DNA of 64,000 bases from assembly GCA_963747455.1 (NCBI GenBank), contig CAVVEW010000001.1, forward strand, positions 32,005-96,004, in the 5' to 3' direction. Each line of letters starts with the position of its first letter. Position 1 is the first letter of the stretch. Under the pieces are notes generated by a model, which saw only the letters and a program-made list of their open reading frames with translations, ran no database searches and was not told the origin of the DNA. Origin of the DNA: an uncultured Candidatus Saccharibacteria bacterium (lineage in GTDB: Bacteria > Patescibacteriota > Saccharimonadia > Saccharimonadales > Saccharimonadaceae). Of the stretch, positions 13,331-40,186 are shown in pieces. Position numbers and translations under genes: made by a program.

Positions 13331-13427
13331 GTTCGGCGAAGCGCGGTGCAGAAACAAAAGCAGCGTTAGCTATTTTTGTTTCAAGCAAGCGGAGGAGCGA
13401 GCAAAGTGAGCGATATCTCCCCTCCTC
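13331..13427 (+). repeat. tRNA-linked repeat E1: pseudo 3'-half of tRNA-Ser(GCT) split in the T-loop
   Basis: GTTCG + 79-nt insert (GCGAAGCGCGGTGCAG...CAAGCAAGCGGAGGAGCGAGCAAAGTGAGCGAT) + ATCTCCCCTCCTC. The last 13 nt repeat tRNA positions 13263-13275. Confidence 0.6.
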
Positions 13428-13449
13428 TCGAATCTGCTATGATTGAACT

Positions 13450-13815
13450 ATGAACATCTACGTTTCTCACTCTAGTGGCTATGACTATGCAACAGAGCTC
13501 TACAAACCTCTAAAAGATACACTGGCTCATGAGCACACGGTATATTTTCCCCATGATCCCGGCAATGATGGCAGCAAATCTAAGGAAATTTTGCTACAGA
13601 GCGATGTATTGCTGGCTGAAGTTTCCTACCCGTCCACGGGCCAAGGTATCGAGCTGGGGTGGGCCGACGATTCACATATGACGATCATAGTTTTTTACCG
13701 ATCTGACGCCACTCCTTCTAGCTCGATAGCACATATCGCAAGCAAGTCGTTCGCGTACGGCACCACAGAGCAGATGGTTGAGCGGCTGACCGAGGCAATC
13801 CTTTCGCTCAAATAA
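13450..13815 (+). CDS. nucleoside 2-deoxyribosyltransferase-like family protein
   Basis: 121 aa. Pattern IYVSHSS...DVLLAEVSYPSTGQGIELGWA resembles the Rossmann-like fold signature (AE.s.pS.G.G.ELG.A) of the nucleoside deoxyribosyltransferase-like superfamily. -10 TATGAT lies 6 nt before the ATG. Confidence 0.4.
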   Translation: MNIYVSHSSGYDYATELYKPLKDTLAHEHTVYFPHDPGNDGSKSKEILLQSDVLLAEVSYPSTGQGIELGWADDSHMTIIVFYRSDATPSSSIAHIASKSFAYGTTEQMVERLTEAILSLK

Positions 13816-13839
13816 TCCTTCTCATGCTATAATTATTTC

Positions 13840-14671
13840 ATGCAGCCGCAAGAGCAAAATCCTGGTGAGCAACCGCAGCCACAGCCATCCGCTGACTGGC
13901 AGCAGCCGACAGCCCCTGTTGCACCAGAGGCAGCTCTGCCGGCCCCTCAAGCTGTGCCCGTTCAAACTCCCGTGACTCCTCCCCAGCCGCAACCTGTCCA
14001 ACCTGCAGCACCTCAAGTCGTGCCGACGCCTGAGCAGCTTAGTGCCCCAGCTCCAGAGCTTCCCGTGCAGGCAACTCCAGTCGCACAGCCTGTCGCGGCT
14101 CCCGAGCCTGCCGCTACGCAAGCGTTACCAGAACAAGATCAAGGACTTGAGCAGGTATATCAAGCAGATGAAACAGCTGAAGCAACTGACGAAGGTGAAT
14201 ATACTGGCGACGAGGAACTCGTGCGCTGGCAAGCTACCGAGCATATCCACCGCGAAAAAACCGCCATATGGTATGGAATTTTCGGCGTAGTTGTCCTCGT
14301 GCTCATCGCACTGGCTATCTTTTTGGTAAAATCATGGACATTTGCCGTCCTCGTCCCTGTCATGGCAGCAGCACTCATCATCTATGCACGTCGCCCACCA
14401 GCCGTACTCGACTACACTCTCAGCCGAAAAGGCCTGCACGTCAATGATCGCCTGTATGAATTTGAACTTTTCAAAGAATTTGGACTTGGTACACGATGAC
14501 GACGAGAACGCAGTGTCTTTGGTGCCGCGTAAACGATTCCAACCGAGCCTAACCGTCTACTTCCCCGACGAAGTCGGTGAAGCGGTCGTCGATATGTTTG
14601 CCGCGCGCCTGCCTATGCATGAAGTTCGGCTTGATCCTATCGATCGCTTGATTCGCCGCCTCCATATCTAA
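13840..14671 (+). CDS. membrane protein with P/Q-rich N-terminus (frameshifted near 14490)
   Basis: ORF 13840-14499 (two TM helices WYGIFGVVVLVLIALAIFLV, FAVLVPVMAAALIIY) continues in ORF 14342-14671 (..VHDDDENAVSLVPRKRFQPSLTVYFPDEVGEAVVDMF..). TATAAT 13828-13833 lies 6 nt before the ATG. Confidence 0.45.
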
Positions 14672-14728
14672 TCTTGCAGCTCACCCCTGTTTGTGGTACA
14701 CTTACTCGAGTTGCGATACAACATTTAT

Positions 14729-14805
14729 GCACCCGTAGCTCAGCTGGATAGAGCATCGGCTTGCGGAGCCGAAGGCCATAGGTTCGAATCCTGTCGGGTG
14801 TACCA
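14729..14805 (+). tRNA. tRNA-Arg (anticodon GCG)
   Basis: GCACCCG acceptor, D-arm TAGCTCAGCTGGATAGAGC, anticodon stem-loop TCGGC-TTGCGGA-GCCGA, T-arm ATAGG-TTCGAAT-CCTGT, encoded CCA. Confidence 0.85.
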
Positions 14806-14874
14806 AGAAAAATGACTCATCAAAAGATGGGTCGTTTTTCTTGGTAGCATTCTGCAAGAATGCGAGAACCGTAA

Positions 14875-14971
14875 GGTTCGGCGAAGCGTAGTGCAGCGAG
14901 AAAAGCGCGAAGCATTTTTCGAGCAAGCAAGCGGAGAAGCGAGCAACGCGACCGCTATCCTGTCGGGTGTA
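14875..14971 (+). repeat. tRNA-linked repeat E2: pseudo 3'-half of tRNA-Arg split in the T-loop
   Basis: GGTTCG + 76-nt insert (GCGAAGCGTAGTGCAG...CAAGCAAGCGGAGAAGCGAGCAACGCGACCGCT) + ATCCTGTCGGGTGTA. The last 15 nt repeat tRNA positions 14788-14802. Confidence 0.6.
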
Positions 14972-15032
14972 AAAGAACATTTTAGTTCCACTATCATCAG
15001 CTATGGTCATTTGTACGTAAAAAGAGTGATAG

Positions 15033-15740
15033 CTAAAAATCCTCAGATTTATAGACGGTGTCATTTTCCGAGAACCACATTTGGCTACCTGTGAGCCTAT
15101 TCAGCATTTCTACACAAGAATCAAATCGCTTTTCCTGAGCAGCTAACTCATCAGTTGTCATCCACTGAGCTTTCGCGTATGGCCAGTGACTAGGTTCCTC
15201 ACCTTGCCATTCTGCTTCAAACACAACAAATAGCTTATCTTCGAGTATCGAGGTTGAGGAATTTGAGTAATCTCTTTGACGGTAAAAACCTTTCAGTGCT
15301 AGTCGAGCTGTTAGACCAGTTTGCTCACGCAAGCCACGAGACGCGGCCTCATCAAACGATTCCCCCCAACGCACTGGCTGACCAATTACACCCCAGTATC
15401 CATAATATGGCTGCCGTAGGCGTTGATGGAACAAGTACTCAATGTTTCCTGTATCTGAGTTGGTCCGCTTAACATACGTTGCTGTGGTCAGTTTTGGCTG
15501 ACGGATAGGAGCACGGTTTTCGTAGTCGAACCGATTCGCGAATTCTTTACCCTCGGGTGTTAATTCATATACCCCTTCGTCATTTTTCATCACCAAACCT
15601 AAGTTAACGAGCTTTCTCAAGTGAAATTTAAAATCGTCGCTTGTTAAATCAGTAACTGCCATCATCTCGGAAAACCGACGTGATGGATAGTGAGATAATT
15701 CCCTCAGTACGCTTACCTGTAATTTGTGTAATTCGTTCAC
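15033..15740 (-). CDS. winged-helix + NUDIX hydrolase domain protein
   Basis: The N-terminus LQVSVLRELSHYPSRRFSEMMAVTDLTSDDFKFHLRKLVNLGLV is wHTH-like. Nudix box GQPVRWGESFDEAASRGLREQTGL. GTG start 7 nt after TATAAT (15748-15753). Confidence 0.6.
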   Translation of the reverse strand: MNELHKLQVSVLRELSHYPSRRFSEMMAVTDLTSDDFKFHLRKLVNLGLVMKNDEGVYELTPEGKEFANRFDYENRAPIRQPKLTTATYVKRTNSDTGNIEYLFHQRLRQPYYGYWGVIGQPVRWGESFDEAASRGLREQTGLTARLALKGFYRQRDYSNSSTSILEDKLFVVFEAEWQGEEPSHWPYAKAQWMTTDELAAQEKRFDSCVEMLNRLTGSQMWFSENDTVYKSEDF

Positions 15741-15839
15741 AGTGCCTATTATATTGAAATCTCATTTTATAGCTACTTCGCTTCATAGGGTATATACGCA
15801 CCCTAGCGTGCTTGCATAGAAATAGGTACTATCGAGCGC

Positions 15840-16790
15840 ATGCGTTATATAGCAAATAGAATCTATAATGAATTCTCTGGTACCTCATATGGCCAGAGTT
15901 TGGCGGAATACCCAAGGTATGATCGGTTCATGCCGGAAGGTTGGCTCGTGGACCAATGGGGGCTACTCATGGGTGACGACATGAATAACTTGTACCATAT
16001 GAGAGAAACGATTGAAAACGCGTGCTGGTTAATTGAAAATGAAAACCAGATTCAACCAGGTACGTTCTCTTTTGAGGATGCAGTGAAACTCACAATCACT
16101 GCTGCCCTACACGATCAAGGCGAAGCGATTGTTGGAGATATTGAGTATGGACGCAAAACCGCCGATAAAGAAATGGCTGAACGTACCGCTTTACGAGACT
16201 ACGAATCTGTGTTTGTACCGGGATTGAGCGGACGAGCACTTGATATATATCGTATTGGCCGCGACGAAATTGCGTTTGGTGATAAAAACGAAAAATTGCC
16301 AGGGGCATTTACTACCATTGAACTTATAGGATTCATCAACAATACGTTGCGTGCTCTTCAGCAACTAAGACGGTTAAGCGGAGTAGATATGTCTGATCGA
16401 AAGCTGATGGCAATGGGAATCCGAAATGATTCTGATCGCCACACTGCAAGAGAGGTTCTTGAGCGTTTAGTCGCTGAAGTACTGGGTAGTGGAGTGCTCG
16501 AAATGTTAATACGTATGGCTAATCGCTATTCTGGAGCGAACCAGTACCTAAAGGCGCATTCGAGTGAGATAAGTTTAGGATTTAATCAAATAAGTCAAAA
16601 AGCGTTTGATTGGTACGAATCCGAAGATCCAGGCGCGGTTGAAGGCGAAAAAAGTAGTCGCATAGAAAAGTTCAATCGCCAAAAATTAATTTGGGAGCGA
16701 TGGTCAGATTCTGAAAATGTAGCCACAATTTCACGGCTAGGAGTTACTGCTACAACTGACGCCTTGTCAGAAATCGGTGATTCAATGTGA
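15840..16790 (+). CDS. HD-domain phosphohydrolase (YfbR/5'-deoxynucleotidase-like)
   Basis: 316 aa. AALHDQGEAIVGDI matches the HD...GD metal-binding signature of HD_3/YfbR-type enzymes. TACTAT lies 7 nt before the ATG. Confidence 0.5.
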   Translation: MRYIANRIYNEFSGTSYGQSLAEYPRYDRFMPEGWLVDQWGLLMGDDMNNLYHMRETIENACWLIENENQIQPGTFSFEDAVKLTITAALHDQGEAIVGDIEYGRKTADKEMAERTALRDYESVFVPGLSGRALDIYRIGRDEIAFGDKNEKLPGAFTTIELIGFINNTLRALQQLRRLSGVDMSDRKLMAMGIRNDSDRHTAREVLERLVAEVLGSGVLEMLIRMANRYSGANQYLKAHSSEISLGFNQISQKAFDWYESEDPGAVEGEKSSRIEKFNRQKLIWERWSDSENVATISRLGVTATTDALSEIGDSM

Positions 16791-16854
16791 TGCTTGCAAA
16801 TTAGGGTATTACATTACCCTATATTATGGCTACGACGTGTGTTTTAATGATGGT

Positions 16855-17775
16855 ATGAGTGAACAATTTCCTAGCACAAGCCCAATTGATGAACCAGTAG
16901 AGAGCTCTATAGACCATACGTCGTCGCATGAGCAGCTCGATTTGGAGGTACCTTTGCCAGAGGAGATACAGCGCCTGATGGATTTGATGCACGACCGTAA
17001 TCTTGAGCATCTCCCTACTATGGAGCATCGTACAAATCACTTATTCTTGGGGCACGCGGGAATCGGAGGTTTACTGACCCAACCAAAATTTGACCAGGAC
17101 CCAGAAAGGCGCAAAGAGCTCCTTAGGATTGACGTTGCAAAAACCTACCTTCGCATACTGACATTGGCTGAAGCACTGGGCACTCCCGATGAATTTACTG
17201 CTAAGTTTGTAGAGCAATACGAAAAATGTCATAGATGCGGTCAAAACCCATGCGTCTGCAACCCCAGTGAGGCCGGTTTTGAAAGTGAGCAACCTACTGC
17301 AACTGAGATACATGCAGGATCAAGCCTTTCTGAATGGCAGGCACACCTCAAAAGGTTGTACGGGGGCAATAATGCACTACGCGACCTAGAGTGGATGGGC
17401 TTAAAGCTTGGCGCCGAGCTGGGTGAATCAATCACAGAGGTAACGCGAATGCAGAAAGCCATTCAGGCTGGCGGTAGCCCGGAGCAAGTAGAAGAATATC
17501 GACAGAGAGCTCTCGAAGAGCTAGCTCAAGTCACCGCATGGCTCCTTGGCATATGTGTTCACCCTGACGCGCGTCTTAACAATCAGGAAATAAATCTTGA
17601 ACAAATCCTGGTAGATTTATACGGCGATGGCTGCCCTAACTGTGGTCAGATGCCGTGCCAATGCGGACCATTCGGACTCGAGGAAACCCGCAAAGATGAG
17701 ACAGCGCCAGTATTACTAGAAATACTTAGGATGAAAGATGAGCAACGAGCTTCGGCACAAAGTGTTGATGCATGA
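16855..17775 (+). CDS. tandem MazG-like (all-alpha NTP pyrophosphohydrolase-like) protein with two CxxCGQxPCxC knuckles
   Basis: Start taken at MSEQFPSTSP (ATG 16855). Two helical modules (..RIDVAKTYLRILTLAEALG.. and ..LGAELGESITEV..EELAQVTAWLLGI..) end in KCHRCGQNPCVC and GCPNCGQMPCQC respectively. Confidence 0.35.
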   Translation: MSEQFPSTSPIDEPVESSIDHTSSHEQLDLEVPLPEEIQRLMDLMHDRNLEHLPTMEHRTNHLFLGHAGIGGLLTQPKFDQDPERRKELLRIDVAKTYLRILTLAEALGTPDEFTAKFVEQYEKCHRCGQNPCVCNPSEAGFESEQPTATEIHAGSSLSEWQAHLKRLYGGNNALRDLEWMGLKLGAELGESITEVTRMQKAIQAGGSPEQVEEYRQRALEELAQVTAWLLGICVHPDARLNNQEINLEQILVDLYGDGCPNCGQMPCQCGPFGLEETRKDETAPVLLEILRMKDEQRASAQSVDA

Positions 17776-17850
17776 AATCCGGTGAGCAGCCGAAGAAACT
17801 TAATGCCCGCATTGAGTACATTGGAAAAGCAACTATTCTTCGATGAGATT

Positions 17851-17887
17851 AGCGCCATCCTGTCGGGAAAACAAGCGGAGGAGCGAG
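17851..17887 (+). repeat. orphan fragment of the tRNA-linked repeat (tRNA-Arg 3'-end copy plus repeat core)
   Basis: AGCGCC-ATCCTGTCGGG (17857-17867 repeats the tRNA-Arg 3' segment), then AAAA-CAAGCGGAGGAGCGAG (17872-17887, identical to 13386-13401). Confidence 0.55.
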
Positions 17888-17928
17888 TCTGGATAAAGCG
17901 CCTTTCTATGAAATGATATACTCAGCAT

Positions 17929-18235
17929 ATGATCAAATCCCATGCCTCCCCTGACTACATATGCCCAATCTGCGTAGGTTTGCGCGAAGAAAATAAACGA
18001 CAATACACTTATTCGACCGAGCGATATCGTGTATCGCGATGAACGCGTGACTGTACTTATCAATTCATTCTTTATGGGCAAGAATGCCGGTCATGTCATC
18101 ATCGTTCCAAATGAACATATCGAAACCGAGCCGTCATACGAGGCTGTAATGACATCTATGAACTCCCCGAAGAGCATGACACCATATCTGAACTGGAATG
18201 CCGCAAAGCAAATGCGCACTAGTGCAGGCGATTAG
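17929..18235 (+). pseudogene. HIT-family-like gene, disrupted (several frame changes; 3' end uncertain)
   Basis: ATG 17929 gives MIKSHASPDYICPICVGLREENK. A shifted frame gives ..LIRPSDIVYRDERVTVLINSFFMGKNAGHVIIVPNEHIE (ORF 18029-18235). No intact HxHxH motif was found downstream in any frame. Confidence 0.35.
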
Positions 18236-18593
18236 GACAGCGTACGAATGCAGACGGCATCACTCAAGCCGAGATAATGAGGCCAGAAAACTGGTCGATC
18301 ACAGCATACCTTTTATTTTCAACCTTGCAGCGTGATCAGACAGTTCAACTACTCAAAAAATCGTTCGACGATGGATCACATCACTCCGAGCTTAGTCTAT
18401 AAAAGCGCCTGGCCCCACGAGAGCGGCAGCTATATCCGAGAAGCTAGCACAGCCGTTCTACGAGACTTGTTCTAGGTTCAACTGCTACGAATCATACACT
18501 ATTCGGAGTAAAACAGTGGGTAATAATTGTTGTTGTATTTCCTTGACAGCCAGGCGTACAATAACACTAGCAGCTGAACATAAAGGAGGATGT

Positions 18594-19016
18594 ATGCGCG
18601 GACCAATTGACTACATAATTGTGGGGTTCGAAGGGAATACCTTCGATGGAAGCATACTAAAAGCTATCGGCGACGCACTCGACCAAGGCGTCATTGCGCT
18701 CGTTGACCTTCTCGTCGTCAGCAAAGACGAAAATGGCGCTGTCAGGGCGCTGGATGTTGCCTCTACTGGCGATGAATTTGCAGTAAGCTTCGTACAGAAG
18801 TACAAACCGGGTGAAAGTCACGTCAACGATGACGACAAAGACGAAATCGGCGACTTGCTCGAGAACAATACGACCGCAGGCATGCTCGTTATCGAGCAAC
18901 TCTGGGCGATTCCGCTCAAGCAAGCCCTTATAGATGCAAATGGTGTACTGGTCGCGGAGGGTCGAATTCACCCTGAAGCGGCAGAAGAATTTAATGTCGA
19001 AGAAGAGGAGGAATAA
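18594..19016 (+). CDS. DUF6325-like protein
   Basis: AAGGAGGA then ATG 18594. GPIDYIIVGFEGNTFDGSILKAIGDALDQGVIALVDLLVVSKDENGAVRALDV resembles the family usually found next to SHOCT proteins. Assignment is from memory only. Confidence 0.4.
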   Translation: MRGPIDYIIVGFEGNTFDGSILKAIGDALDQGVIALVDLLVVSKDENGAVRALDVASTGDEFAVSFVQKYKPGESHVNDDDKDEIGDLLENNTTAGMLVIEQLWAIPLKQALIDANGVLVAEGRIHPEAAEEFNVEEEEE

Positions 19017-19017
19017 G

Positions 19018-19278
19018 ATGCCGGGATTATTACGAGGGGTAGCGAGAACGGCTGTCATAGCAGGAACCGCTACGGCAGTATCGAACAACGTCAGTCGGCG
19101 TCAAGCGCGGCGCTGGTCTGATCAGCAAGCCGAAGCGCAGCCACAGATGGAGGCAGCGCCGCCCGAGCCAGCTAATGATATGGTCTCTGAGCTGCAGCAG
19201 CTCGCACAGCTAAAAGATCAGGGCATCCTGACTCAAGAAGAATTCGACGCCAAGAAAAAGCAGATTCTTGGTATCTGA
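19018..19278 (+). CDS. SHOCT-domain protein
   Basis: GAGGAGGA then ATG 19018. N-terminal TM-like segment, C-terminal LQQLAQLKDQGILTQEEFDAKKKQILG, which is the SHOCT motif. Confidence 0.6.
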   Translation: MPGLLRGVARTAVIAGTATAVSNNVSRRQARRWSDQQAEAQPQMEAAPPEPANDMVSELQQLAQLKDQGILTQEEFDAKKKQILGI

Positions 19279-19299
19279 TAGACGTAGTGTGCTCTATGC

Positions 19300-19329
19300 A
19301 AAACGTCGCCTGGGCAAGGCGACGTTTTT
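19300..19329. terminator. bidirectional terminator
   Basis: AAAACGTCGCC tgggca AGGCGACGTTTT between convergent genes. Confidence 0.65.
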
Positions 19330-19349
19330 AGTATGGTATGGAAGAATGG

Positions 19350-19496
19350 TTACGCTCGGGCGCGGACAGCATGTACGGGTATATCGACTGCTTGGTCGCG
19401 AAGACGAAGCTGGTTCAGGCGGCGGCGGTGGTACTGTGACGCCAGTCGACGGATGCGAAATTTTGGACTAGTGAATTTACGTTTCGTATCTGCCAT
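19350..19496 (-). CDS. hypothetical 48-aa Arg-rich ORF
   Basis: MADTKRKFTSPKFRIRRLASQYHRRRLNQLRLRDQAVDIPVHAVRARA. Its ATG lies 2 nt after the upstream TAA (GTGTAATCATGG). Below the ORF-track cutoff. Confidence 0.3.
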   Translation of the reverse strand: MADTKRKFTSPKFRIRRLASQYHRRRLNQLRLRDQAVDIPVHAVRARA

Positions 19497-19498
19497 GA

Positions 19499-19678
19499 TT
19501 ACACTCCTGGTTGTGGTACACCAAAGAAATAGTTGATTTCGTCGATGATGCGACCGCGCTGATAGACGGGGACTTTTCGTGGTCGTATGTCTACGTCGTT
19601 TAGCTCAGGGAATTTGCGTGATTTTGATGCCATGAATTTTTTGATTCGAGCATCTGTTACCATATCTACTCTTTTCAT
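19499..19678 (-). CDS. hypothetical 59-aa ORF
   Basis: AGGTGGAGAATC then ATG 19678. MKRVDMVTDARIKKFMASKSRKFPELNDVDIRPRKVPVYQRGRIIDEINYFFGVPQPGV. One residue below the ORF-track cutoff. Confidence 0.4.
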   Translation of the reverse strand: MKRVDMVTDARIKKFMASKSRKFPELNDVDIRPRKVPVYQRGRIIDEINYFFGVPQPGV

Positions 19679-19815
19679 GATTCTCCACCTCTTCTTGCGT
19701 TAACAATACCCGTAGTATAGCTAGGCTCGCAAGGGAACACTGTAAAAAATGTCACATAAAAACACAATCACGATTCGTATGTGAGAAACTCTCGACTTTT
19801 TGTTACTATACGAGA

Positions 19816-20268
19816 ATGACAATACAGTATATCTGTCGAGGCAATGCCTTTCGAAGTATCATGGCTGAAGCATATACAAACTCTCTACACATCCCCGGTG
19901 TGGAAGTGTTATCGAGTGGTACTATTGCAACCCGCGCTAAACACGGAAACATCGCGCGCTTTCCGATGACGCTCGATGTTCTATCGGAGCATGGAATCCA
20001 AAAGTACGCCAAGGATCACTATGCGGATGATTTGACCCAGGAATTACTCGATCGCTCAGATGTTGCCGTATTCGTAAATGACCGAGCATACCAGGAGGCA
20101 GCAACTACCTACCGTATGCCGCGGCAAGTCTACATATGGGATATTACGGATATTGGCGAAGGCGACCGAGTTGCGCATTCATTGACCGAAGAGCAGCACT
20201 TCAGTGAAATAATTTTCGGTGAGATCAAGCAAAACATCGACGAGCTCGTAAAGCAATTAGGCTTGTAA
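19816..20268 (+). CDS. low-molecular-weight phosphotyrosine phosphatase / ArsC-like
   Basis: P-loop CRGNAFRS (CX5R-S) at residues 7-14. 150 aa. TACTAT lies 6 nt before the ATG. Confidence 0.7.
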   Translation: MTIQYICRGNAFRSIMAEAYTNSLHIPGVEVLSSGTIATRAKHGNIARFPMTLDVLSEHGIQKYAKDHYADDLTQELLDRSDVAVFVNDRAYQEAATTYRMPRQVYIWDITDIGEGDRVAHSLTEEQHFSEIIFGEIKQNIDELVKQLGL

Positions 20269-20745
20269 GCGCCCGTTATTGACATGTATATACTCACGCA
20301 AGCCGGCTTCGCCGCGCTGCATTATACGGTGATGAAAGAATGTAAAGAGAGGCCGGAGCAAAAAAGATAGTCTCTGCATCCACGCTTTCGTCGTGACAAC
20401 GTTCCAGGTGATGACAATCGTGGTGGGTGTGCTTGGTGTGGTATCTGTGGCGTGAATCATGAAGCTTCCCTTTCCGACTAAGTCTCCGTCTGAGTCGAAG
20501 TAGATGTGGCGAGCCTTTTCGTATTCGGTGACAGTGATGTCGGTTCTGAGTCTATAGCCACCTCCACTTTTCCAGGTGCATATATAGCGCGAACCGGCTC
20601 CGTGCACTTCGTCTAAAATTTCGACAGATTCGAGTCCCGCCCACCAGCTTTGCCAGTCCTCACTGCGGAGGATTGCTTCGGAAACTACCTCGCGAGAAGC
20701 GGGGATTGTCCAGGTGTGGGTGAACTCGTATTCGGCTGGCTGCAT
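20257..20745 (-). CDS. SRPBCC (START/polyketide-cyclase-like) family protein
   Basis: 162 aa. Size and W-rich pattern (SEDWQSWWAGLESVEI...) are typical of SRPBCC proteins. Weak assignment. Confidence 0.4.
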   Translation of the reverse strand: MQPAEYEFTHTWTIPASREVVSEAILRSEDWQSWWAGLESVEILDEVHGAGSRYICTWKSGGGYRLRTDITVTEYEKARHIYFDSDGDLVGKGSFMIHATDTTPSTPTTIVITWNVVTTKAWMQRLSFLLRPLFTFFHHRIMQRGEAGLREYIHVNNGRLQA

Positions 20746-20811: not shown

Positions 20812-20903
20812 TGGCGGAGAGGAAGAGATTCGAACTCTCGGTACGAGTCGCCCCGTACACACGCTTTCCAAGCGTGCGCCTTCAACCGCTCGGCCACCTC
20901 TCC
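20812..20903 (-). tRNA. tRNA-Ser (anticodon GGA)
   Basis: Minus strand reads GGAGAGGTGGCCGAGCGGTTGAAGGCGCACGC-TTGGAAA-GCGTG..., long variable arm, GAGAG-TTCGAAT-CTCTT, CCA. Confidence 0.9.
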
Positions 20904-21065
20904 ATAGTTTCCTATTGTACAAAATTCATTCGACTCATACGAGCCCAATAGACAGGCGCAGCGCCGCGTGCTCCTATCGCTTAGCTCTTCCGCCTCCTCA
21001 CCGACAAATAAGTAAACTTATTGTCGATTTCGCTCGGCTCCACCAACCGCTCGGCCACCTCTCCA
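20904..21065 (-). repeat. repeat upstream of tRNA-Ser(GGA) ending in a 22-nt copy of the tRNA 5' end
   Basis: CAACCGCTCGGCCACCTCTCCA at 20883-20904 (tRNA 5' end, plus strand) recurs at 21044-21065. The interval contains GGCGGAAGAGCTAAGCGAT, related to the E-repeat core, and a second degenerate copy GTGGAGCCGAGCG. Confidence 0.5.
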
Positions 21066-32294: not shown

Positions 32295-32329
32295 ATCGAG
32301 CGGTAGCAAACAAGAGGGGCTGCTATTTG

Positions 32330-33645
32330 TTAGCTCGAGTGCATTTCGCACTTCACCGGCTTCGTCCCACGGATGGACTTCCCAGAGGCACTGTCGTCTT
32401 TTTCGCCGCCAGATCCTATCGCACGTTCGATGGTTTTTTCGTGGCCTTTGCCGAGCAATATGACGACATCGTCTTTGCCTGAAACTCTGGTCATCGCGAA
32501 TTTGATAGCTTCTGGGCGGTCGAGTATGAGGAACATGTCTTTATCTTTTACTTTGCCGCTTCGCTCTGCACCTTCGGCGATTTGGATGAGGATGAGATTG
32601 CCGTCGATATCGCGGTCGTCTTCTTCGGTCAGGACGACTTCATCGCAGTATTTACCAGCAATTTCACCTTGGGTCCATCGCTTGCCTTCGTCGCGGCGGC
32701 CAGCTGAGCCAAATACCGCGATCAGTTTGCCCTTGGTGCTTTTTCGTAAATCACCGAGCAGTCGTTCGAAACTATCTGGCGTATGCGCAAAGTCGACGAT
32801 GACGCTAAAGTCTTGTCCTTCGTCGATGGTGTCCATGCGGCCTTCAACGCCCTTGAGGCTCGCAATTCCCTGCTCGATCTGTTCTTTTGATAGACCGAGA
32901 TGATGGCCGACAGTCACGGCAGCGAGACTATTTGATACGTTGAATTCACCAGGAATATTGCAGCGGATGTCGTAGCTCGTTTCGCCGATGACTGCGCTGT
33001 ACGTGCTGCCGTCACCCTGCATGTCGATAGTCGTGTGCCTGGACGTCACCCTTTGCGATACCGTAGGTTGCGCTGTGGTCGATGGCTCCAGTGAAGATAT
33101 CTGCACTCGGATCATCGGCGTTTACGACACCAAACCCGCCACGTTTGTTTGCCAAACGAAACATCGATGCCTTTGCGTCGCGGTAGCGTTCAAATGTCCC
33201 GTGGTAATCGAGGTGCTCATGGGTAATGTTCGTCATGACGGCGATCTCGTACGGGATACCCCAGACGCGGTGCTGCGCGAGCGCATGGCTGGTAGTCTCG
33301 AGTACGACCCAGTCAGCTCCTTGTAGCTTTGAACTCTTTGAGGCGGCGATTTAACAGAGGTGCCGATACGGTCGTCATGTGTGCGACTTGAGGGGTAATG
33401 TCATTGCCGACACCGTAGGCAACTGTTGTCATAAGAGCAACATTATAACCAGCATCAGCGAGCATCTTGTGAATCATGAAACTCGTCGTCGTCTTGCCGT
33501 TTGTGCCTGTTACACCGATGACATGCATGCCGCGTGCAGGAAAGCCGTAGCGGGCACTCACGAGCATTGCTTCTAGTTTGTGTCCTGTTGGTTCGATAGC
33601 CTTAAAGACGCTCATGGGCATGAGCTTTTTTAGGAGTTGTTTCAC
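32330..33645 (-). CDS. murE: UDP-N-acetylmuramoyl-L-alanyl-D-glutamate--(L-Lys or meso-DAP) ligase MurE (at least 2 frameshifts)
   Basis: GTG 33645 overlaps the upstream stop (GTGA). VIGVTGTNGKTTT P-loop, then ..TNITHEHLDYHG.. (ORF 33012-33236), then ..DFAHTPDS..FGSAGRRD.. (ORF 32330-33115). Confidence 0.75.
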
Positions 33646-34718
33646 GCTTTCAGTACCTCTTCTAGTAATATTTCGCTTGTTAATTTTCCGTTCGTCGACT
33701 TCGTGCGTAAAGTGCGGGCCGAGCAAGAGTACGACGTCATCTTTTTTGGCTGAGCGGAGGGTCAACTCGATCGACTGCTTCAGGTCGTCAGCATGGTAGC
33801 GTGCCGTTGACTTCCTCGCCCCTTGTGACGGTCACATGGTCGGCTCTGAGTCGAGAGCATGTCGAGCGTGTCGCTGTCGAAACTATCATCACAGGCGATG
33901 AGCAGACGGCGCTTGGCAATCTGCTTGAGTGAGGCCGTGACGAGATCTGCTGAACGAGATGACGGAGCACCATCGACATAGAGGGAGTACGGCTCATTGA
34001 GCGGCAATTGCTCGAGATTTCCTCGGACGGTTTCGAGCCGAGCAATCCCCTCTTGGAACTTAGAAATATCGAGTCCTAGCAGATAGCCAGCGGCGACTGC
34101 TGCGGCGACATTGTAGGCATTTGCCTTGCCAAGGAGGTAGGTCGACAGCGTCAAATTGGTTTGGTGGTCAATTGTTACTTCAATTTCTGTGCCTTTGCGA
34201 TACAGTACGACATTTCGCAGGTATGCTTCGGCAAGTTCGCTGTCGCCAAAGCTGATTTTTTGATGTGGTGCGATGGCCAAGCCTTCGGTGGCCATGCCTT
34301 CAGGAATCACGACATACGCTGACGGTGTTTCCATCACTTGCTTAGAAAGCTCGCCTTCTGAGGTGACGACCATCATTTCTACCTGGAGTGTCTCCAGTAC
34401 GCAGCTACGCAAAATAGCCGGTGTGACCGCCATGACGACCGTCTCAGCTCGTTTTTTACTCTTTGAGATGGCTCGTTGGACGGCTTCGGCGCTGGCATCG
34501 TAGCGCTCTGGGTAAGGTTCGCCATCGATGTGACTCGTTCTGTCGGTAAATACTGCAGCTGTTTGGGCATTTTCCCGTAGGAGCTCGCCGATATAGAGAG
34601 CTGTCGTCGTCGCACCGTATTCCCCCACTACCAGTATCAGCCGGACGTTACGCGACGGGTGGTTGTAACGCAATGCAGCCTTTTTGGCTCGAGCTTTCCC
34701 AAAAAAATCTCGCTTCAT
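33642..34718 (-). CDS. Mur-ligase-family protein with degenerate P-loop (frameshifted C-terminus)
   Basis: ORF 33780-34718. LILVVGEYGATTTALYIGELL occupies the GxxGKT/S position. The C-terminal ..DDVVLLLGPHFTHE.. piece is in the frame of ORF 33313-33765, and the natural end ..LLEEVLKA-TGA is in a third frame. Confidence 0.5.
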
Positions 34719-34761
34719 ACCCCTATTTTACACCTAATCAGCGATGGTATACTAGACGAGT

Positions 34762-35850
34762 ATGAAAATATTGGGAATCGAGTCGAGTTGCGACGAGACG
34801 AGCGCGGCGGTTGTCGAGGATGGCCGGACGCTGCTGAGCAATGTAGTTCAGAGCCAAATCGACATCCATGCAGAATATGGCGGAGTGATTCCAGAGATTG
34901 CAGCGCGCAGCCATATCGAGGCAATCAACCCTGTGATCGCAAAAGCGTTGCAGGATGCGCATGCTGACTGGGATGATATCGATGCGATCGCCGTCACAAA
35001 TGCCCCTGGCCTCGTGGGCTCTCTATTGATTGGCACGCTTGCCGCTCGAACTCTCGCTGTCATTCACAATAAGCCCCTCTACGGCATCCACCATGTGGAG
35101 GCGCATGTGTATGCAAATTTTGTAATTCAACAGAGTGAAGACAGTGAAAAGCAATTGATACTTCCCTCTTCTCAGCCCAAATTTCCTATGCTCGCACTCA
35201 TTGTCAGCGGTGGCCACACACAGCTAGTGTTATTTCGAGCTCATGGTGACTATGAACTCCTCGGTCAGACGCAGGACGATGCCGTCGGCGAGGCTTTTGA
35301 CAAGGTAGCGAAGATCCTTGGTCTCCCCTATCCAGGCGGACCGTCGGTTGAGATCGCAGCCAAGGAGGGTGACCCGTACGCGTATGATTTGCCAAAGGCT
35401 CGTATGCAAAACCCATACGATTTTAGCTTCTCGGGCCTCAAGACAGCCGTTCTGAGGGCCGTACAGCGCGATGTGGGCAAGGACTTTAGATTTCCCTCTC
35501 ACGAGCTCTCAGCGCTTCTCACGGCCAAACAGCAGCATGATTTCGCTGCTAGCTTCGTCCGTGTCGCGATAGAGACACTCGTCGACAAGACCGAAAAGGC
35601 TTTCCATGACTACTCCCCTGCCTCTGTTGTGATCGCTGGCGGCGTGGCAGCGAGCCCACCGCTACGTGCAGAACTCTCGCGTCGCTTACCGATAGCTATC
35701 GAGTACGCTCCGATGAGCCTTTGTACGGATAACGCAGCAATGATTGCGACTCTCGGCTACTACTATGCTCAGCATCATCAGGCGGATGACCCCTACTCTC
35801 TCGAAGTCACCCCTAGCCTGAGTATGACCAAAACTGCGTGGGCAAACTAG
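34762..35850 (+). CDS. tsaD: tRNA N6-adenosine threonylcarbamoyltransferase TsaD
   Basis: MKILGIESSCDETSAAVVEDGR...GGVIPEIAARSHIE...VSGGHTQL are hallmark Kae1/TsaD motifs. Confidence 0.9.
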   Translation: MKILGIESSCDETSAAVVEDGRTLLSNVVQSQIDIHAEYGGVIPEIAARSHIEAINPVIAKALQDAHADWDDIDAIAVTNAPGLVGSLLIGTLAARTLAVIHNKPLYGIHHVEAHVYANFVIQQSEDSEKQLILPSSQPKFPMLALIVSGGHTQLVLFRAHGDYELLGQTQDDAVGEAFDKVAKILGLPYPGGPSVEIAAKEGDPYAYDLPKARMQNPYDFSFSGLKTAVLRAVQRDVGKDFRFPSHELSALLTAKQQHDFAASFVRVAIETLVDKTEKAFHDYSPASVVIAGGVAASPPLRAELSRRLPIAIEYAPMSLCTDNAAMIATLGYYYAQHHQADDPYSLEVTPSLSMTKTAWAN

Positions 35851-36060
35851 CAAAAATCGCTATCTGACCTCGAGAAAATGACTATTGTACACATACGTAT
35901 TGCGTGTGCTATACTGATATCGAACATAAACACGTGAATGCGGGGAAAAGCGACCTGTCAACATTTTCGTAAGAAGATGAGTATTGACATTATGCCCAAT
36001 TTCACGTGAAATATTGATAAGCTTTCAGCGTGTTGGTGGATAGCTACAAGAGGTGATTAG

Positions 36061-38623
36061 GTGAAATTAGCGAGTACATACACCCCCGGAGACTACGAAC
36101 CGAACATCTACGCTCTCTGGGAAGAATCTGGTGCATTCAAGCCGTCTGGTAAGGGCGAACCTTTTTCTATGGTCATGCCACCGCCAAATGCCAACGGCAA
36201 TCTGCATATCGGTCACGCACTTGATATGAATCTCAAGGATATCCTGGCCCGCTGGCGACGTATGCAGGGTAGGGACGTGGCATTTCTGCCAGGTGCAGAT
36301 CACGCTGGCTTCGAAACGTGGGTGGTATACGAAAAATATCTACAGTCTGAAGGCAAAAGCCGCTTTGATTTCACCCGTGAACAGCTCTATAGCCAGGTGT
36401 GGGATTTTGTCGAAAACAGACGAGGCGATATGGAGCTTCAGCTCCGCGCTCTCGGAACCAGTTGTAGCTGGGACGATTTGGTATTTACACTCGATGAAAA
36501 AGTCATCGACACCGTATACGACACCTTCAAGCGCATGTGGGATGACGAACTCGTCTACCGCGGTAAGCGTATCGTTAACTACTGTACAAAGCATCAGACG
36601 AGCTTTGCTGATATCGAAGTCGAGCACAAAAACGAAAAAGGGAAGTTATGGAAAATTGCCTATCCGTTGCTCGATAAACGCGGCGAAATCGTCGTTGCGA
36701 CAACTCGTCCAGAGACAATGCTCGGTGATACAGCAGTTGCCGTCCACCCCGATGACGAGCGCTACAAAGACCTCATCGGCACACGCGTACAGCTACCGAT
36801 AACAAATAGGGAAATGCCGATCATCGCCGATGAGCATGTCGACAGGGAATTTGGTACTGGTGCAGTCAAGGTGACGCCAGCGCACGATCCAAATGACTTT
36901 GAGATTGCCGAACGGCATGGTCTCGAAATCCTTACTATCATCGACGAACAGGGTAAGATGCAGAATGTCCCAGAGTACCTGCAGGGCATGACAGTTCTAG
37001 ATGCCCGCAAGCGCCTGCTTGCCATGCTCGAAGCTGATGAAGCGATGCGTGGTTCAGAAGATATCGAACACGCCGTCGGCCATTGTTACAAGTGCGGCAC
37101 TATCATCGAGCCAATGCTCAAAGAGCAGTGGTTTGTGAAACTAGAGCCGCTTGCACACGATGCGATTACGCGCTTGCAGCAAAAGGAGATCAAATTTCAC
37201 CCGGCAACCAAGCAAAAGGAAGTCATAGCCTACCTCTCACAGATACGCGATTGGAATATTTCTCGCCAGATTCCGTGGGGAATCCCAATACCGGCATTTC
37301 AAAGTACCACAAATCCAGATGATTGGATATTTGATACGCGGGTTGATCAGAAAACTATCGATGTAAAGGGTACAACATATAAACGTGAAGAAGATACCTT
37401 CGACACGTGGTTTAGCTCTGGTCAATGGCCCTATATCGTCACCGATAGTTTGTCCGAGGGCGAACTGAGCCGATTCTTCCCGACTGATCTGATGGAAACA
37501 GGCAGCGACCTTCTGCGGCAGTGGGTGAGTCGTATGATTATGCTCAGCGTCTATCGTACTGGCCAAGTACCGTTTGAAGATGTTTATTTCCACGGCATGG
37601 TCAATGACGAAAACAACCAAAAAATGAGCAAGTCAAAGGGCAATGTCATCAATCCTATGGAGATGGTCGCCGAATTTGGTTCGGACGCGCTCCGAATGGG
37701 TATTATTTCTGGACGTAGCGCCTCGCAAAACCAAGCCTTCAACAAGGGCGCGGTGGTTGCTGGACGCAATTTCTGCAATAAGCTCTGGAATATCGCTCGT
37801 TTTACCGAAAATACTCTTGGCGATAGTCCGGCTATCAGTTCTGCGTTGGCGCAGACGATGGCGGATCATTGGATTATTCGCCAGCTCAATGAAGCGCGCG
37901 CTACTATCGACGAGCAACTAGAGCAGTATCGGTTCTCAGAGGCCGCCGATACGGTCTATCATGTCATCTGGGGCGATGTTGCCGACTGGTTCCTCGAAGT
38001 CAGCAAGGTAGAAAAAAATACCGACATGCTGGCATGGGTGCTCGATACGTCACTCAAGCTCGCTCATCCGTTTGCGCCATTTGTGACCGAGACGATCTGG
38101 CAGAGCCTGTCGTGGCACGAGAGTATTACCGATAACCTCATTACTGCCAAATGGCCAACAGATCAAAAGTACGATGAAATTGCCGCAGCAGAGTTTGGCC
38201 GATTCAAGGATTTGGTCAGCGAAGCCCGCTTTGTCACGGCAGGACTTCCTGGAAACGACAAGTATACACTGCTCTATCACGATGATTCGTTGATTGCCGA
38301 CAATGCCGAGTTGCTCAAGCATCTCGTACGCTCCGTAAACGCCGTTGAACATGTCGACGTAGGGCAGGGGACTGCGCCTCGCGAGTAGCGGACGTGACGT
38401 CTGGCTCGATATCAGTGATGAAGTTCTCTATGAGCACCAGATCAACCTCGAGCGACGCCTTGCCGAAGTACGCCAGTCTATCGCCGCACTCGAAGCACGA
38501 CTCTCGAATGAAAACTATATTGCAAAAGCTCCTGAGCATCTAGTAGAAGAGACGCGCACCAAGCTCGACGAAGAAAAAGCCCATGCCGAGCGACTCGTGC
38601 ATGAGCTTGAAGTACTGAGTTAA
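36061..38623 (+). CDS. valS: valine--tRNA ligase (frameshift near 38370; C-terminal coiled coil in second frame)
   Basis: GTG after AGAGGTGA. HIGH motif PPPNANGNLHIGHAL, KMSKS motif NQKMSKSKGN. After ORF end 38388 the coiled-coil tail ..YEHQINLERRLAEVRQSIAALEARLSNENYIAKAPEHLVEETRTKL.. continues to TAA 38621-38623. Confidence 0.9.
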
Positions 38624-38625
38624 AT

Positions 38626-38949
38626 TTAGGCTACGATCGGGAGAGAGTAGTTATCAAATGCGTGCCGGCCGCGAGGTTCGGCATTTTGCATGAGGTAGCG
38701 TTTCGATTTGTTCTCACGGGGTTGGATAGAAGGGGACTGATAGACAAATCCATTGAGGGTACGCTGTGTATGCTCGGGGTGGACGTGTGCTTCAGCAAGC
38801 GTTCCGGCATCGGTGGTGACTACGTTGCGTTTGAGCAAGTACTCGCCACTCATGTAGGTAGCTTTATCGATACGCGCGTCATGGATGAAAATACCAGTGG
38901 CGGTCACGAGGCTGAGAATGATTCCGAAGATGTTGATGAATTTTGTCAT
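38626..38949 (-). CDS. hypothetical membrane-anchored protein
   Basis: 107-aa ORF with N-terminal TM FINIFGIILSLVTATGIFI. Confidence 0.4.
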   Translation of the reverse strand: MTKFINIFGIILSLVTATGIFIHDARIDKATYMSGEYLLKRNVVTTDAGTLAEAHVHPEHTQRTLNGFVYQSPSIQPRENKSKRYLMQNAEPRGRHAFDNYSLPIVA

Positions 38950-39023
38950 GGTGGTGTATGTTTTTTGTAGTTTTACTTCACCATGGTAGCATAAGCTTTA
39001 TGAATTGTCAAGTATAGGTCAAG

Positions 39024-39479
39024 CTATACGTGGTGGTAGCTACCGCCACGAGCAATCTCTTGGGACCGGTACAGCTGTTCTATGAGCATAAGTCGAACCA
39101 GCTGATGTGGAAATACCAGAGGTGAGAGTGACCAAATATAGTCTGCTCGTCGCCTGGAGTTTGTCACTGACTCCATAGGCGCCACCGATGACGAAGGTGA
39201 CGGATTGGCTGTGTGTGAAACGCGTATCGCAGTAGGTGGCAAGTCCTGGCGAGTCGAGCATGTTGCCGGTCTCATCGAGCAGTACGACGGCAGACGATGC
39301 ATCGAGCCGCTCGAGTATGCGCTCTGACTCTTCTTCGCGGGCTCTATCGCCCTCGAAGCTCGAATGTGGCAAGAGTTCCCATTTGACGTCCCATGGCTGC
39401 TTGAGGCGCTTTTGATAGCGTTCTATGCCGACTGAACCCAGTCTTCGTGCTTTTTGCCGATAGCGAGGATGGTAATCAT
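39024..39479 (-). CDS. rlmH: 23S rRNA (pseudouridine1915-N3)-methyltransferase RlmH (2 frameshifts)
   Basis: ATG 39479 overlaps the HIT stop (ATGA). [17 protein letters not shown] / [38 protein letters not shown] / ..[29 protein letters not shown] matches the SPOUT RlmH pattern. Confidence 0.7.
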
Positions 39480-39874
39480 TGGAAGCGGAGTTTCTCGGCC
39501 ATTGCTTCCAAGTCATCATTGTTCGCAGGATTTTGCATGTCTGGAATTTCTCTGTATTGTCCGCGGTCGAAAGGGAATATCTTTACATGTGCGTGGTTTT
39601 CGACATCTAGGCCTTCAATAATCACGCCGACTCGTTGCTTGTCTGGGAACGCCTCACGGAGTCGTTTGCCTACTTTATGCACAGTACTCATCAGCGCTTG
39701 GTATTCTTGCTCTTCAAGATCCCACACGAAGGGGACTTGTCGCTTTGGGACAACGAGGGTGTGGCCTGGTTGTATCGGATGAATGTCAAGAAATGCAAGC
39801 GTATTTTCATCTTCATAAATTTTTTGACACGAGATTTCGCCGTTGATAATCTTGGTAAAAATTGAATCTTCCAT
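39476..39874 (-). CDS. HIT-family (histidine triad) protein
   Basis: MEDSIFTKIINGEISCQKIYEDENTLAFLDIHPIQPGHTLVVPK...NHAHVKIFP. TATACT (39881-39886) lies 6 nt before ATG 39874. Confidence 0.75.
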   Translation of the reverse strand: MEDSIFTKIINGEISCQKIYEDENTLAFLDIHPIQPGHTLVVPKRQVPFVWDLEEQEYQALMSTVHKVGKRLREAFPDKQRVGVIIEGLDVENHAHVKIFPFDRGQYREIPDMQNPANNDDLEAMAEKLRFQ

Positions 39875-39926
39875 GCCCTCAGTATACACCCCGTATCTGT
39901 TATACTAGAAATCGAAGAACCACTAC

Positions 39927-40014
39927 GGAGAGGTGCAGGAGTGGTTGAACTGGCCGCTCTCGAAAAGCGGTAAGCCGCAAGGTTTCGAGGGTTCGAATCC
40001 CTCTCTCTCCGCCA
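39927..40014 (+). tRNA. tRNA-Ser (anticodon CGA)
   Basis: GGAGAGG acceptor, anticodon stem-loop CCGCT-CTCGAAA-AGCGG, long variable arm, T-arm GAGGG-TTCGAAT-CCCTC, CCA. Terminator hairpin at 40018-40058. Confidence 0.9.
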
Positions 40015-40093
40015 TGAGAAAACGTCTCGTCGGGCTTTCGTCCTAACGAGACGTTTTCTTTTTGTCAGAAAAGAGAAGGGATTTGAACCCAGG

Positions 40094-40186
40094 GGTTCGT
40101 GAAGCGAGCGATGCGAAGTATCGCGTGCGGAAATAGGAAGCCCCGCTACTCGCGGGCGCGACCGCTATCCCTCTCTCTCCGCCATG
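40094..40186 (+). repeat. tRNA-linked repeat E3: pseudo 3'-half of tRNA-Ser(CGA) split in the T-loop
   Basis: GGTTCG + 67-nt insert (TGAAGCGAGCGATGCGAAG...CGCGGGCGCGACCGCT) + ATCCCTCTCTCTCCGCCATG. The last 20 nt repeat 39997-40016. Confidence 0.6.

Follow-up and report, generated by a model that had tools for sequence, protein, structure and literature searches.

The window, that is the whole stretch of DNA analysed here (64,000 nucleotides of contig CAVVEW010000001.1), is, judged by its sequence, a 64-kb piece of a Saccharibacteria chromosome (candidate phyla radiation, CPR). The nearest relatives of its ComF-like protein are found in Saccharibacteria assemblies (60% identity to L001, 50% to L002 and 48% to L003; labels of this form denote loci of relatives, from Saccharibacteria assemblies and metagenome contigs, with which the window was compared), and type IV secretion pilin genes, which are typical of Saccharibacteria, are numerous. 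ARAGORN identified five tRNA genes, Ser-UGA, Ser-GCU, Arg-GCG, Ser-GGA and Ser-CGA, and the order of the first four is kept in relatives. Clear tRNA-derived debris lies beside four of the five genes, and the fifth (Ser-UGA) is followed by a possible decayed unit. Three such units, E1 downstream of tRNA-Ser(GCU), E2 downstream of tRNA-Arg(GCG) and E3 downstream of tRNA-Ser(CGA), had been singled out in an earlier note on this DNA. In each of them an insert lies between a T-stem-5′-like piece and an exact copy of the 3′ part of the adjacent tRNA. The inserts of E1 and E2 belong to a family of folded, non-coding repeats, here called X, and all strong copies of X that we found lie in tRNA-derived loops.

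All three units were recovered where the earlier note had placed them, each with an interrupted T-loop and with a copy-to-original distance in the range of 152-170 bp given there (152, 169 and 170 bp for E1, E2 and E3). The piece upstream of the insert resembles the 5′ strand of a T-stem and ends in GTTC; in E1, this left arm plus the next G agrees with GGGAGTTCG of tRNA-Ser(GCU) at 8 of 9 positions. Downstream of the insert each copy begins at ATC, which corresponds to tRNA position 59 in the T-loop. The exact 3′ copies, previously given as 13, 15 and 20 nt, measure 13, 15 and 18 nt, the last one reaching 20 nt when two trailer bases are included. The 13 nt of E1 comprise the T-loop AT, the 3′ strand of the T-stem and part of the 3′ strand of the acceptor stem. 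As had been claimed, the ends are specific to the tRNA, each being an exact copy of the neighbouring gene's own sequence. At E3, a degenerate inverted copy of the T arm and 3′ strand precedes the unit and forms a fold-back with its arms. The 134-152 nt between a tRNA and its repeat hold no gene, only the terminator hairpin and short arms. Positions of all features are listed in Table 1.

As a chance control, exact self-copies of at least 10 nt were sought within 350 nt of 34 tRNAs in 16 Saccharibacteria loci. Such a copy was present at 16 of the 34 tRNAs (the longest had 36 nt), compared with 40 of 1190 random 350-nt segments of the same loci, none of which contained a match longer than 11 nt. 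The suspicion that the tRNA-end matches are no better than chance short repeats is not borne out by these numbers.

The inserts of all three units had been taken to be homologous. For E1 and E2 this holds: the copies are 70% identical, both are detected by the covariance model R1 described below, and a 23-nt core (CAAGCAAGCGGAGRAGCGAGCAA) occurs in the window in these two units only (0 expected by chance). The E3 insert is not recognised by R1; it shares with E2 only its end motifs (GTGAAGCG on the left, CGCGACCGCT on the right) and is best called a diverged relative.

The consensus of X consists of GGCGAAGCG, CAGTGAAG, a covarying hairpin (H1), CAAGCAAGCGGAGGAGCG, an optional second hairpin (H2) and GRAGCGAT, in this order. 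Copies are 64-90 nt long, non-coding and structured. Model R1, built from a 19-sequence alignment (A3), detected 26 copies with E <1e-5 in 16 loci, together about 290 kb of Saccharibacteria DNA. With filters off, its strong matches in the window were confined to E1, E2 and a copy upstream of tRNA-Ser(GGA), all three within 170 nt of a tRNA; the last is the fourth insert of this kind in the window and was overlooked in the earlier note. Rfam 15, applied at the gathering score and up to E = 10 to the units and five related loci, matched only tRNA. A consensus unit gave no blastn match in phage and plasmid collections, and eight matches of the X pattern to viral contigs were all noise in GC-rich coding DNA. 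No description of such tRNA-fragment/insert units was found in the literature searched.

Over the 26 copies, 92.6% of the cells in paired positions are paired, and 10 of 11 base pairs show changes on both sides. The observed covariation score was reached by none of 500 shuffles, and controls with slid partners gave 34-54% paired cells. Because the 26 copies had been aligned to the model, the counts are biased in favour of the structure; the hairpin was, however, already seen in an unfitted MAFFT alignment. Pairs of the G.U type number 28 vs 6 of the A.C type, and this excess together with the covariation points to a single strand of fixed polarity as the active form of X. The unpaired, purine-rich motifs are strongly conserved. 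The two ends (GGCGAAGCG and GRAGCGAT) resemble direct rather than inverted repeats, and X has no terminal inverted repeats. Longer elements bounded by X ends were also considered and rejected: the isolated end motifs in 286 kb were chance occurrences in coding DNA or decayed remnants near tRNAs.

The location of X follows a strict pattern. Every one of the 26 copies is preceded by (T/G)T(C/T) and followed by A. Where the parent tRNA reads TT(C)GAA, the fragment reads TT(C)G-X-A; X either replaces GA or follows G with the loss of one A, and there is no target duplication. A half-hairpin is always found on each side, namely the T arm in sense (14 copies) or antisense orientation (6, so that X is reversed in 6 of the 20 T-loop cases) or the D arm of Ser tRNAs (6). 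The association between insert and tRNA on which the earlier note depended is thus complete for the strong copies (26 of 26 in the 16 loci): every one is flanked by recognisable T-arm or D-arm halves of truncated Ser, Arg, Gln or Met tRNAs, and every host is a truncated or degenerate copy beside an intact, uninterrupted tRNA gene. None of the 12 TTCGAA sites outside tRNAs in the window carries X; the hexamer alone therefore does not explain its location, and most of these sites lie in coding DNA, where an insertion would be lost. Upstream of tRNA-Ser(UGA) in L001 and L002, a 36-nt copy of the tRNA 5′ end stops inside the anticodon and continues into a diverged X-like insert, which in L001 begins with GGCGAAGCG; neither insert is matched by R1.

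Upstream of tRNA-Ser(GGA), the host of X is a 5′ pseudo-copy of this gene that is interrupted in its D-loop and degenerate in its remainder. Its promoter region and that of the intact tRNA in L015 are orthologous (29 of 35 positions identical), which indicates a tandem duplication with insertion into the upstream copy. The short spacer before the live gene resembles the promoter of the pseudo-copy. A further, rearranged fragment combines a piece of tRNA-Arg with the X core in permuted order; the region around it (17823-17894) gives a weak R1 match (E 0.15).

Units and X copies were also found in relatives. A unit with an 18-nt tRNA copy including CCA follows tRNA-Ser(GCU) in L001, units follow tRNA-Ser(UGA) in L003, L019 and L022, and L022 has a unit with reversed X downstream of tRNA-Arg. 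In the unit of L019 upstream of tRNA-Ser(GGA), the insert is flanked on either side by perfectly matching tRNA sequence (positions 1-18 and 23-46). A metagenome scan with the pattern GGCGAAGCG-N25-55-AAGCGGAGRAGCG returned 76 loci, about 65 of which were discarded as Glu/Ala-rich coding noise. The 11 loci with true members (L025 and L073, which have the same sequence, L027, L035, L039, L048, L050, L064, L065, L067 and L081) all show tRNA-derived contexts and add tRNA-Gln and tRNA-Met to the list of hosts.

Several of these loci document near-identical copies in different fragments and a nested insertion, which we read as signs of recent movement. L065 contains two X copies 3.9 kb apart, one between Ser-GCU-type and the other between Ser-UGA-type arms, which are 98.8% identical. 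L064 and L065 share a reversed X at the Ser-GCU downstream site; beside it L064 has a second, forward X, nested at GA|ATCT, where L065 reads GAATCT. Three copies on mixed strands and two tRNAs lie within 1.3 kb in L048, and X is also found as back-to-back inverted pairs. Decay is visible as well: an 11-nt remnant (GGCGAAGCGAT) in a pseudo T-loop of L081 is attributable to deletion between the direct-repeat-like ends, and remnants of the form GAT|ATC remain 3′ of tRNA-Ser(GCU) in L002, L019 and L024. At the Arg downstream site, the window has a forward X, L022 a reversed one and L001 only what a near-complete deletion has left. X copies of one genome are more alike than those that occupy orthologous sites: identity is 70% between E1 and E2 but 42% between E1 and the L001 copy at the site orthologous to that of E1.

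The tRNA fragments themselves follow a regular layout, with 5′-end fragments upstream of the parent gene and 3′-end fragments downstream. The 3′ copies begin precisely at position 59 and in many cases reach CCA, the extent expected of a reverse transcript of mature tRNA that halted at m1A58. Before a downstream unit one usually finds the same T arm or 3′ end in inverted form, together with a small hairpin tipped GAA or GCGAAGC; this fold-back layout is seen in L001, L022, L019, L003 and E3. Several 5′ fragments end with an inverted copy of the next arm. The terminator of tRNA-Arg and the hairpin following it are also present in L015, which has no unit, and the terminator is therefore not borne by the element. 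Three variants of the tRNA-Arg T-stem are present, CCTGT (window), CGTGT (L001) and CGTAT (L022), and each is repeated in the downstream copy of the same locus. Gene conversion, selection or repeated origin may keep the fragments in step with their tRNA.

Table 1. Positions of tRNA genes, unit parts and related features; positions refer to the window unless a locus is named
Feature	Position	Strand	Basis or remark
tRNA-Ser(UGA)	12152-12239		ARAGORN
tRNA-Ser(GCU), parent of E1	13188-13280	+	ARAGORN; Rfam tRNA 53.9 bits
Terminator-like hairpin with A-tract/T-tract, directly 3′ of tRNA-Ser(GCU)	13281-13320	+	read from the sequence; absent from a simple terminator scan
E1 left arm GGAAGTTC, T-stem 5′ strand and T-loop start	13327-13334	+
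E1 copy of X (GGCGAAGCG ... GAGCGAT), 80 nt	13335-13414	+	R1 64.4 bits, E 2.7e-14, filters off
E1 right arm ATCTCCCCTCCTC, exact 13-nt copy of tRNA positions 59-71	13415-13427	+	same sense as tRNA
tRNA-Arg(GCG), parent of E2	14729-14805	+	ARAGORN; Rfam
Terminator hairpin of tRNA-Arg	14806-14842	+	common to L015
Second hairpin GCATTCTGCAAGAATGC	14847-14863	+	common to L015
E2 left arm, small inverted repeat GAACC-gtaa-GGTTC ending in T-stem-5′/T-loop piece TAAGGTTC	14866-14879	+
E2 copy of X, 77 nt	14880-14956	+	R1 51.6 bits, E 5.5e-11
E2 right arm ATCCTGTCGGGTGTA, exact 15-nt copy of tRNA-Arg 3′ part from position 59	14957-14971	+
Rearranged fragment: 11 nt of tRNA-Arg T-stem 3′ strand, AAAA, X core CAAGCGGAGGAGCGAG	17857-17887	+	permuted order
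tRNA-Ser(GGA)	20812-20903	-	ARAGORN; Rfam
Degenerate rest of pseudo-tRNA-Ser(GGA), anticodon arm to T-loop	20924-20975	-	pairwise alignment to live tRNA
X copy in D-loop of 5′ pseudo-copy of tRNA-Ser(GGA)	20976-21044	-	R1 56.8 bits, E 2.6e-12
Exact 21-nt copy of tRNA-Ser(GGA) 5′ end, up to GGTTG in D-loop	21044-21064	-
tRNA-Ser(CGA), parent of E3	39927-40014	+	ARAGORN; not in Rfam list at gathering score
First terminator-like hairpin after tRNA-Ser(CGA)	40016-40064	+
Degenerate inverted copy of T arm and 3′ strand of tRNA-Ser(CGA)	40067-40090	+	GGGATTTGAACCC, reverse complement of GGGTTCAAATCCC
E3 left arm AGGGGTTC	40091-40098	+
E3 insert, 68 nt, diverged, X-like, two hairpins	40099-40166	+	alignment; unmatched by R1
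E3 right arm, exact 18-nt copy (40167-40184) of tRNA positions 59-76 incl. CCA, plus trailer bases TG	40167-40186	+
Second terminator-like hairpin, after E3	40186-40215	+	start resembles that of first hairpin
RayT-like gene	L109 9946-10627
RayT-like gene	L115 9954-10653
RayT-like gene	L024 16864-17522
Gene-less pair of RayT repeats	L109 8602-8803
Z copy (second insert family)	L048 ~395-545		upstream of minus-strand tRNA at 322-394
Z copy (second insert family)	L115 ~13340-13450		upstream of tRNA-Ser-GGA at 13511

Other inserts and debris of this type were noted besides X. A second insert family, Z, of about 80 nt and unrelated to X, is also found inside 5′ pseudo-copies of tRNAs, so the phenomenon is not limited to X; it reads TGAGA-hairpin-TCGCAAG..CACAAATG..TGCTCATTT..CTGACTCG.GGGGTCGCGG.ACGT. 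In the window, two degenerate copies of the 5′ end of tRNA-Ser(GCU) (..CCAGGTGGCTG|CTGCGTGAAACGTA..), 113 nt apart, lie upstream of this gene at 12975-13113; what interrupts them at the D-loop is an insert of a third kind, distinct from X. The possible decayed unit 3′ of tRNA-Ser(UGA), at 12335-12375, reads GGGTGTAGTGGAGCCGAGACGGGGCGCATATC|TGCACGG and looks like the remains of an X copy with a vestige of the tRNA 3′ part behind it; if it is counted, all five tRNAs of the window would carry debris.

The gene content beside the units varies, as judged from a 121-aa gene without Pfam match right after E1 (13450-13815) that is missing at the orthologous position in L002, L015 and L022. At 13840-14671, an open reading frame of 219 aa and an overlapping one of 109 aa look like one gene with a frameshift near 14490. 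L002 has an intact orthologue (11766-12392), and the window has either a pseudogene or a sequencing error. In L003 a segment with tRNA-Ser(UGA), an E unit and a pilin gene is present twice, 1.2 kb apart (6453-6540 and 7650-7737), and the contig stops inside the second copy, which may be a real tandem duplication or an assembly artefact. Metagenome contigs with the ComF gene often stop at tRNA-Ser(UGA), at most about 100 nt past ComF (L013, L014, L017, L021 and L023), which suggests that repeated tRNA fragments and X copies break assemblies.

We give about an even chance to the interpretation that X is a small non-autonomous mobile element which targets, as a folded single strand, the loops of tRNA-type hairpins and is visible only in dispensable duplicates of tRNA genes. 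E1-E3 would then be dead, truncated copies of the neighbouring tRNA gene, with the T-loop occupied by a member of the X family. X would insert at the GA of TT(C)-GA-A in a hairpin loop of tRNA type, as a rule in T-loops and sometimes in D-loops of class II tRNAs; a diverged X-like insert occupies the anticodon loop of tRNA-Ser(UGA). The active form of X would be either RNA or, as in HUH-type elements, DNA in single-stranded form. Insertion into the sole live copy of a tRNA would be lethal, so X would persist only in partial duplicates. The duplicates would have come first and the insertions second: the 5′ fragments upstream would be tandem duplicates with the old promoter, and the 3′ fragments downstream would often be fold-back (inverted) duplicates. 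Of the two origins offered in the earlier note, a small mobile module fits best: the same insert family occurs in fragments of Ser, Arg, Gln and Met tRNAs, can have either orientation, can be nested or internally deleted, and has copies with 98.8% identity at two different fragments. There is no sign of the other half of that proposal, in which the module would itself produce the copy of the tRNA 3′ end; judging by their appearance, the fragments are tandem or fold-back duplicates of local origin that the module occupies. We regard it as possible, if doubtful, that X represents a new kind of bacterial mobile element that recognises folded tRNA-type loops in single-stranded DNA or RNA rather than plain sequence, forms a counterpart of the "transposing" tRNA introns of archaea, and by its activity or by breaks generates the partial tRNA duplicates found around most of the tRNA genes in these bacteria.

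A partner enzyme was sought in the window and in relatives. The annotated parts of the window contain no integrase, transposase or reverse transcriptase gene. A RayT-like Y1 (HUH) transposase gene of about 200 aa is present in L024 and widespread in relatives, in conserved housekeeping neighbourhoods; in L109-L114 it lies about 125 nt 3′ of tRNA-Ser(CGA), at a site orthologous to that of E3. In L109-L115 the gene is flanked on both sides by a 21-nt inverted repeat, AAGGATAATCCCTTAACAGAT, which is identical across species despite only about 57% identity of the RayT-like proteins; in L024 only the upstream copy was found. No X was found beside the RayT-like gene in relatives, and the window has neither a RayT-like homologue nor AAGGATAATCCCTTAACAGAT. 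With its own distinct repeats and no X nearby, this transposase is not linked to X on present evidence, and we rejected it as a partner.

Several observations weigh against a mobile X. No transposase, recombinase or reverse transcriptase is linked to it in the DNA searched. X has neither terminal inverted repeats nor a target duplication, and the loss of one or two nucleotides at its junctions agrees with no transposition chemistry characterised so far. Genomes in which ComF is only 44-60% identical have the unpaired motifs GGCGAAGCG, AAGCGGAGGAGCG and GAGCGAT in common, a pattern known more from functional RNAs than from selfish DNA. X diverges, whereas the flanks derived from tRNA keep the exact sequence of the local tRNA; conversion, selection or repeated origin would be needed for this. 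For the units of the window itself there is no truly empty/filled pair of sites, and the E3 insert is not recognised by R1. Finally, the confinement to tRNA-derived loops is partly an effect of survivorship in a mostly coding genome.

An unlikely explanation, and the main rival of a mobile X, is that the units are functional, structured non-coding RNAs on a tRNA-like scaffold, in which the T arm, the 3′ strand of the acceptor stem and CCA close the X domain. They would be transcribed with the tRNA or alone; possible roles are regulation, service as a decoy that captures a tRNA-binding factor, and a contribution to processing or stability. Selection would keep the flanks. The covarying stems, the unpaired motifs conserved in distant genomes and the excess of G.U pairs would be expected of such an RNA. 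The same is true for the 36-nt 5′ copy upstream of tRNA-Ser(UGA), which is perfect in L001 and L002 despite a strongly diverged insert, for the Arg copy that follows its own T-stem variant in three species, for the second terminator-like hairpin after E3 and after the unit of L022, and for 5′ pseudo-copies that begin directly behind promoter-like sequence. Nevertheless, an RNA of this type is hard to reconcile with an X that is antisense to the neighbouring tRNA in almost a third of the T-loop cases (6/20) or arranged in back-to-back inverted pairs, or with units that are decayed or absent at orthologous sites (L015, L002, L019 and L024). Furthermore, E1 keeps just 13 nt of the tRNA copy, the folding energies of whole units are unexceptional compared to shuffled sequences (z = -1.8, -1.2 and -1.1), and there is no Rfam match besides tRNA.

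The composition of X bears on a second, rather improbable alternative, purely local rearrangement. The X core in reverse (CTCCGCTCCTCCGC) agrees with the 3′ strand of tRNA-Ser(GCU) (CTCCCCTCCTCCGC) at 13 of 14 positions; against Ser-GCU 3′ ends, reverse-complemented X scores 17.7, forward X 12.3 and shuffled X about 12. In addition, hairpin H1 in the centre of X resembles the A-tract/T-tract terminators 3′ of these tRNAs. Judging by this modest similarity, X may have begun as an inverted 3′ end of a tRNA-Ser with its terminator and then spread. Local rearrangement would dispense with the spread: template switching or hairpin-primed repair at the inverted repeats of tRNAs would have produced fold-back or tandem duplications of the tRNA 3′ end and terminator, and the inserts would be alike only through gene conversion among T arms, X being no independent element. 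The order of inverted arm, small hairpin and direct arm downstream of the genes and the palindromic junction GAT|ATC agree with this as well. However, the same Ser-like core occurs in Arg, Gln and Met fragments and in D-loops, copies with 98.8% identity lie in two tRNA contexts 3.9 kb apart, and ordinary gene conversion would need longer shared flanks than the 3-5 nt present. Local rearrangement explains the origin of X better than its spread.

The scar of T-loop integration and excision suggested in the earlier note is very improbable. The units would be attR-type remnants in the tRNA T-loop, with the insert as an arm of the attachment site and the rest of the element deleted. Partial tRNA copies beside the full gene are a known signature of integration (PMC9897764), the copies run from the T-loop to the 3′ end, and the Y1-transposase element near tRNA-Ser(CGA) in L109-L114 shows that this site is used by mobile DNA. 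Yet only a short, gene-free gap separates the repeats, L015 has the first terminator and hairpin of tRNA-Arg but no unit, and the insert is found reversed, nested, in D-loops and beside four tRNA isotypes (several isoacceptors); viral contigs, phages and plasmids gave no match. Since the 5′ and 3′ pieces of the T-stem flank the insert, X would lie inside the crossover region, unlike in att sites, and the units are not plain att-site duplications, as the earlier note had itself concluded. A guide RNA with a scaffold and a tRNA-matching guide for the homing of TnpB or CRISPR-associated transposons was rejected given both orientations, tRNA sequence on both sides and no nuclease gene nearby, and inspection by eye for likeness to hammerhead, bulge-helix-bulge or integron attC structures revealed no consistent motif.

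tRNA genes are classic landing sites of integrases. A different process marks them here, with a conserved folded repeat only in the loops of dead fragments, in the tightly packed genome of an ultra-small symbiont. If X is mobile, it would follow a new target logic (hairpin loops of tRNAs) and provide a new source of duplication and decay of tRNA genes in CPR bacteria. If it is a functional RNA, it would be a widespread RNA class, not previously known, that is built on a tRNA scaffold. In practical terms, the units seem to break metagenome assemblies at tRNA loci and can be mis-called as tRNA pseudogenes, and the covariance model can be used for their annotation.

The units share features with att scars, with archaeal tRNA introns and with REP and IS200/IS605 elements and have the defining features of none of these. 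Like a classical miniature inverted-repeat transposable element, X is short, non-coding and multi-copy (up to three per 1.3 kb, in L048), without the terminal inverted repeats and target duplication of such elements. At E. coli tyrT, 178-bp downstream repeats contain the last 19 nt of tRNA-Tyr. There, too, the 3′ end of a tRNA recurs a short distance behind its gene; these are simple tandem repeats of one locus and are not known to have a family of loop-interrupting inserts across tRNAs and genomes.

REP/REPIN sequences with their RAYT and miniature derivatives of IS200/IS605 are short non-coding hairpin repeats which act as single strands and lack terminal inverted repeats and target duplications. 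Elements of the IS200/IS605 type insert 3′ of a fixed 4-5-nt target that is kept intact, with an orientation biased by the direction of replication. X resembles these groups in its strand-specific structure, its occurrence in both orientations and in inverted pairs, and its genome-specific sequence signatures. It differs in being confined to tRNA-derived loops and in having no linked Y1 transposase, the RayT of relatives being flanked by a different 21-nt repeat. The left flank of X is always TT(C/T) or GTT, yet one or two target bases are lost, and there is no strand bias along the contig, orientations being mixed within 1.3 kb.

Partial tRNA copies at attL and attR are scars of integrative elements (Reiter 1989; Williams 2002, as cited in PMC9897764). 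Such scars and the units have in common a truncated tRNA 3′ copy of the same sense downstream of the intact gene that starts inside a loop. In contrast to the scars, the units have neither an element nor an integrase between the repeats, their copy is split by an insert in the T-loop, and they include upstream 5′ fragments, both orientations and D-loops.

In Thermoproteales archaea, near-identical short inserts, attributed to "intron transposition", occur in the D-, anticodon- and T-loops (for example at 20/21, 56/57 and 59/60) of different tRNAs within a genome (PMC4090602). The units differ from these introns in that they belong to a bacterium, are truncated dead copies with inserts in both orientations and, by eye, show no bulge-helix-bulge at the junctions; no splicing is implied, and Rfam intron families had no match over the units and related loci. 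What the two systems share is the presence of similar short inserts in the loops of different tRNAs within one genome.

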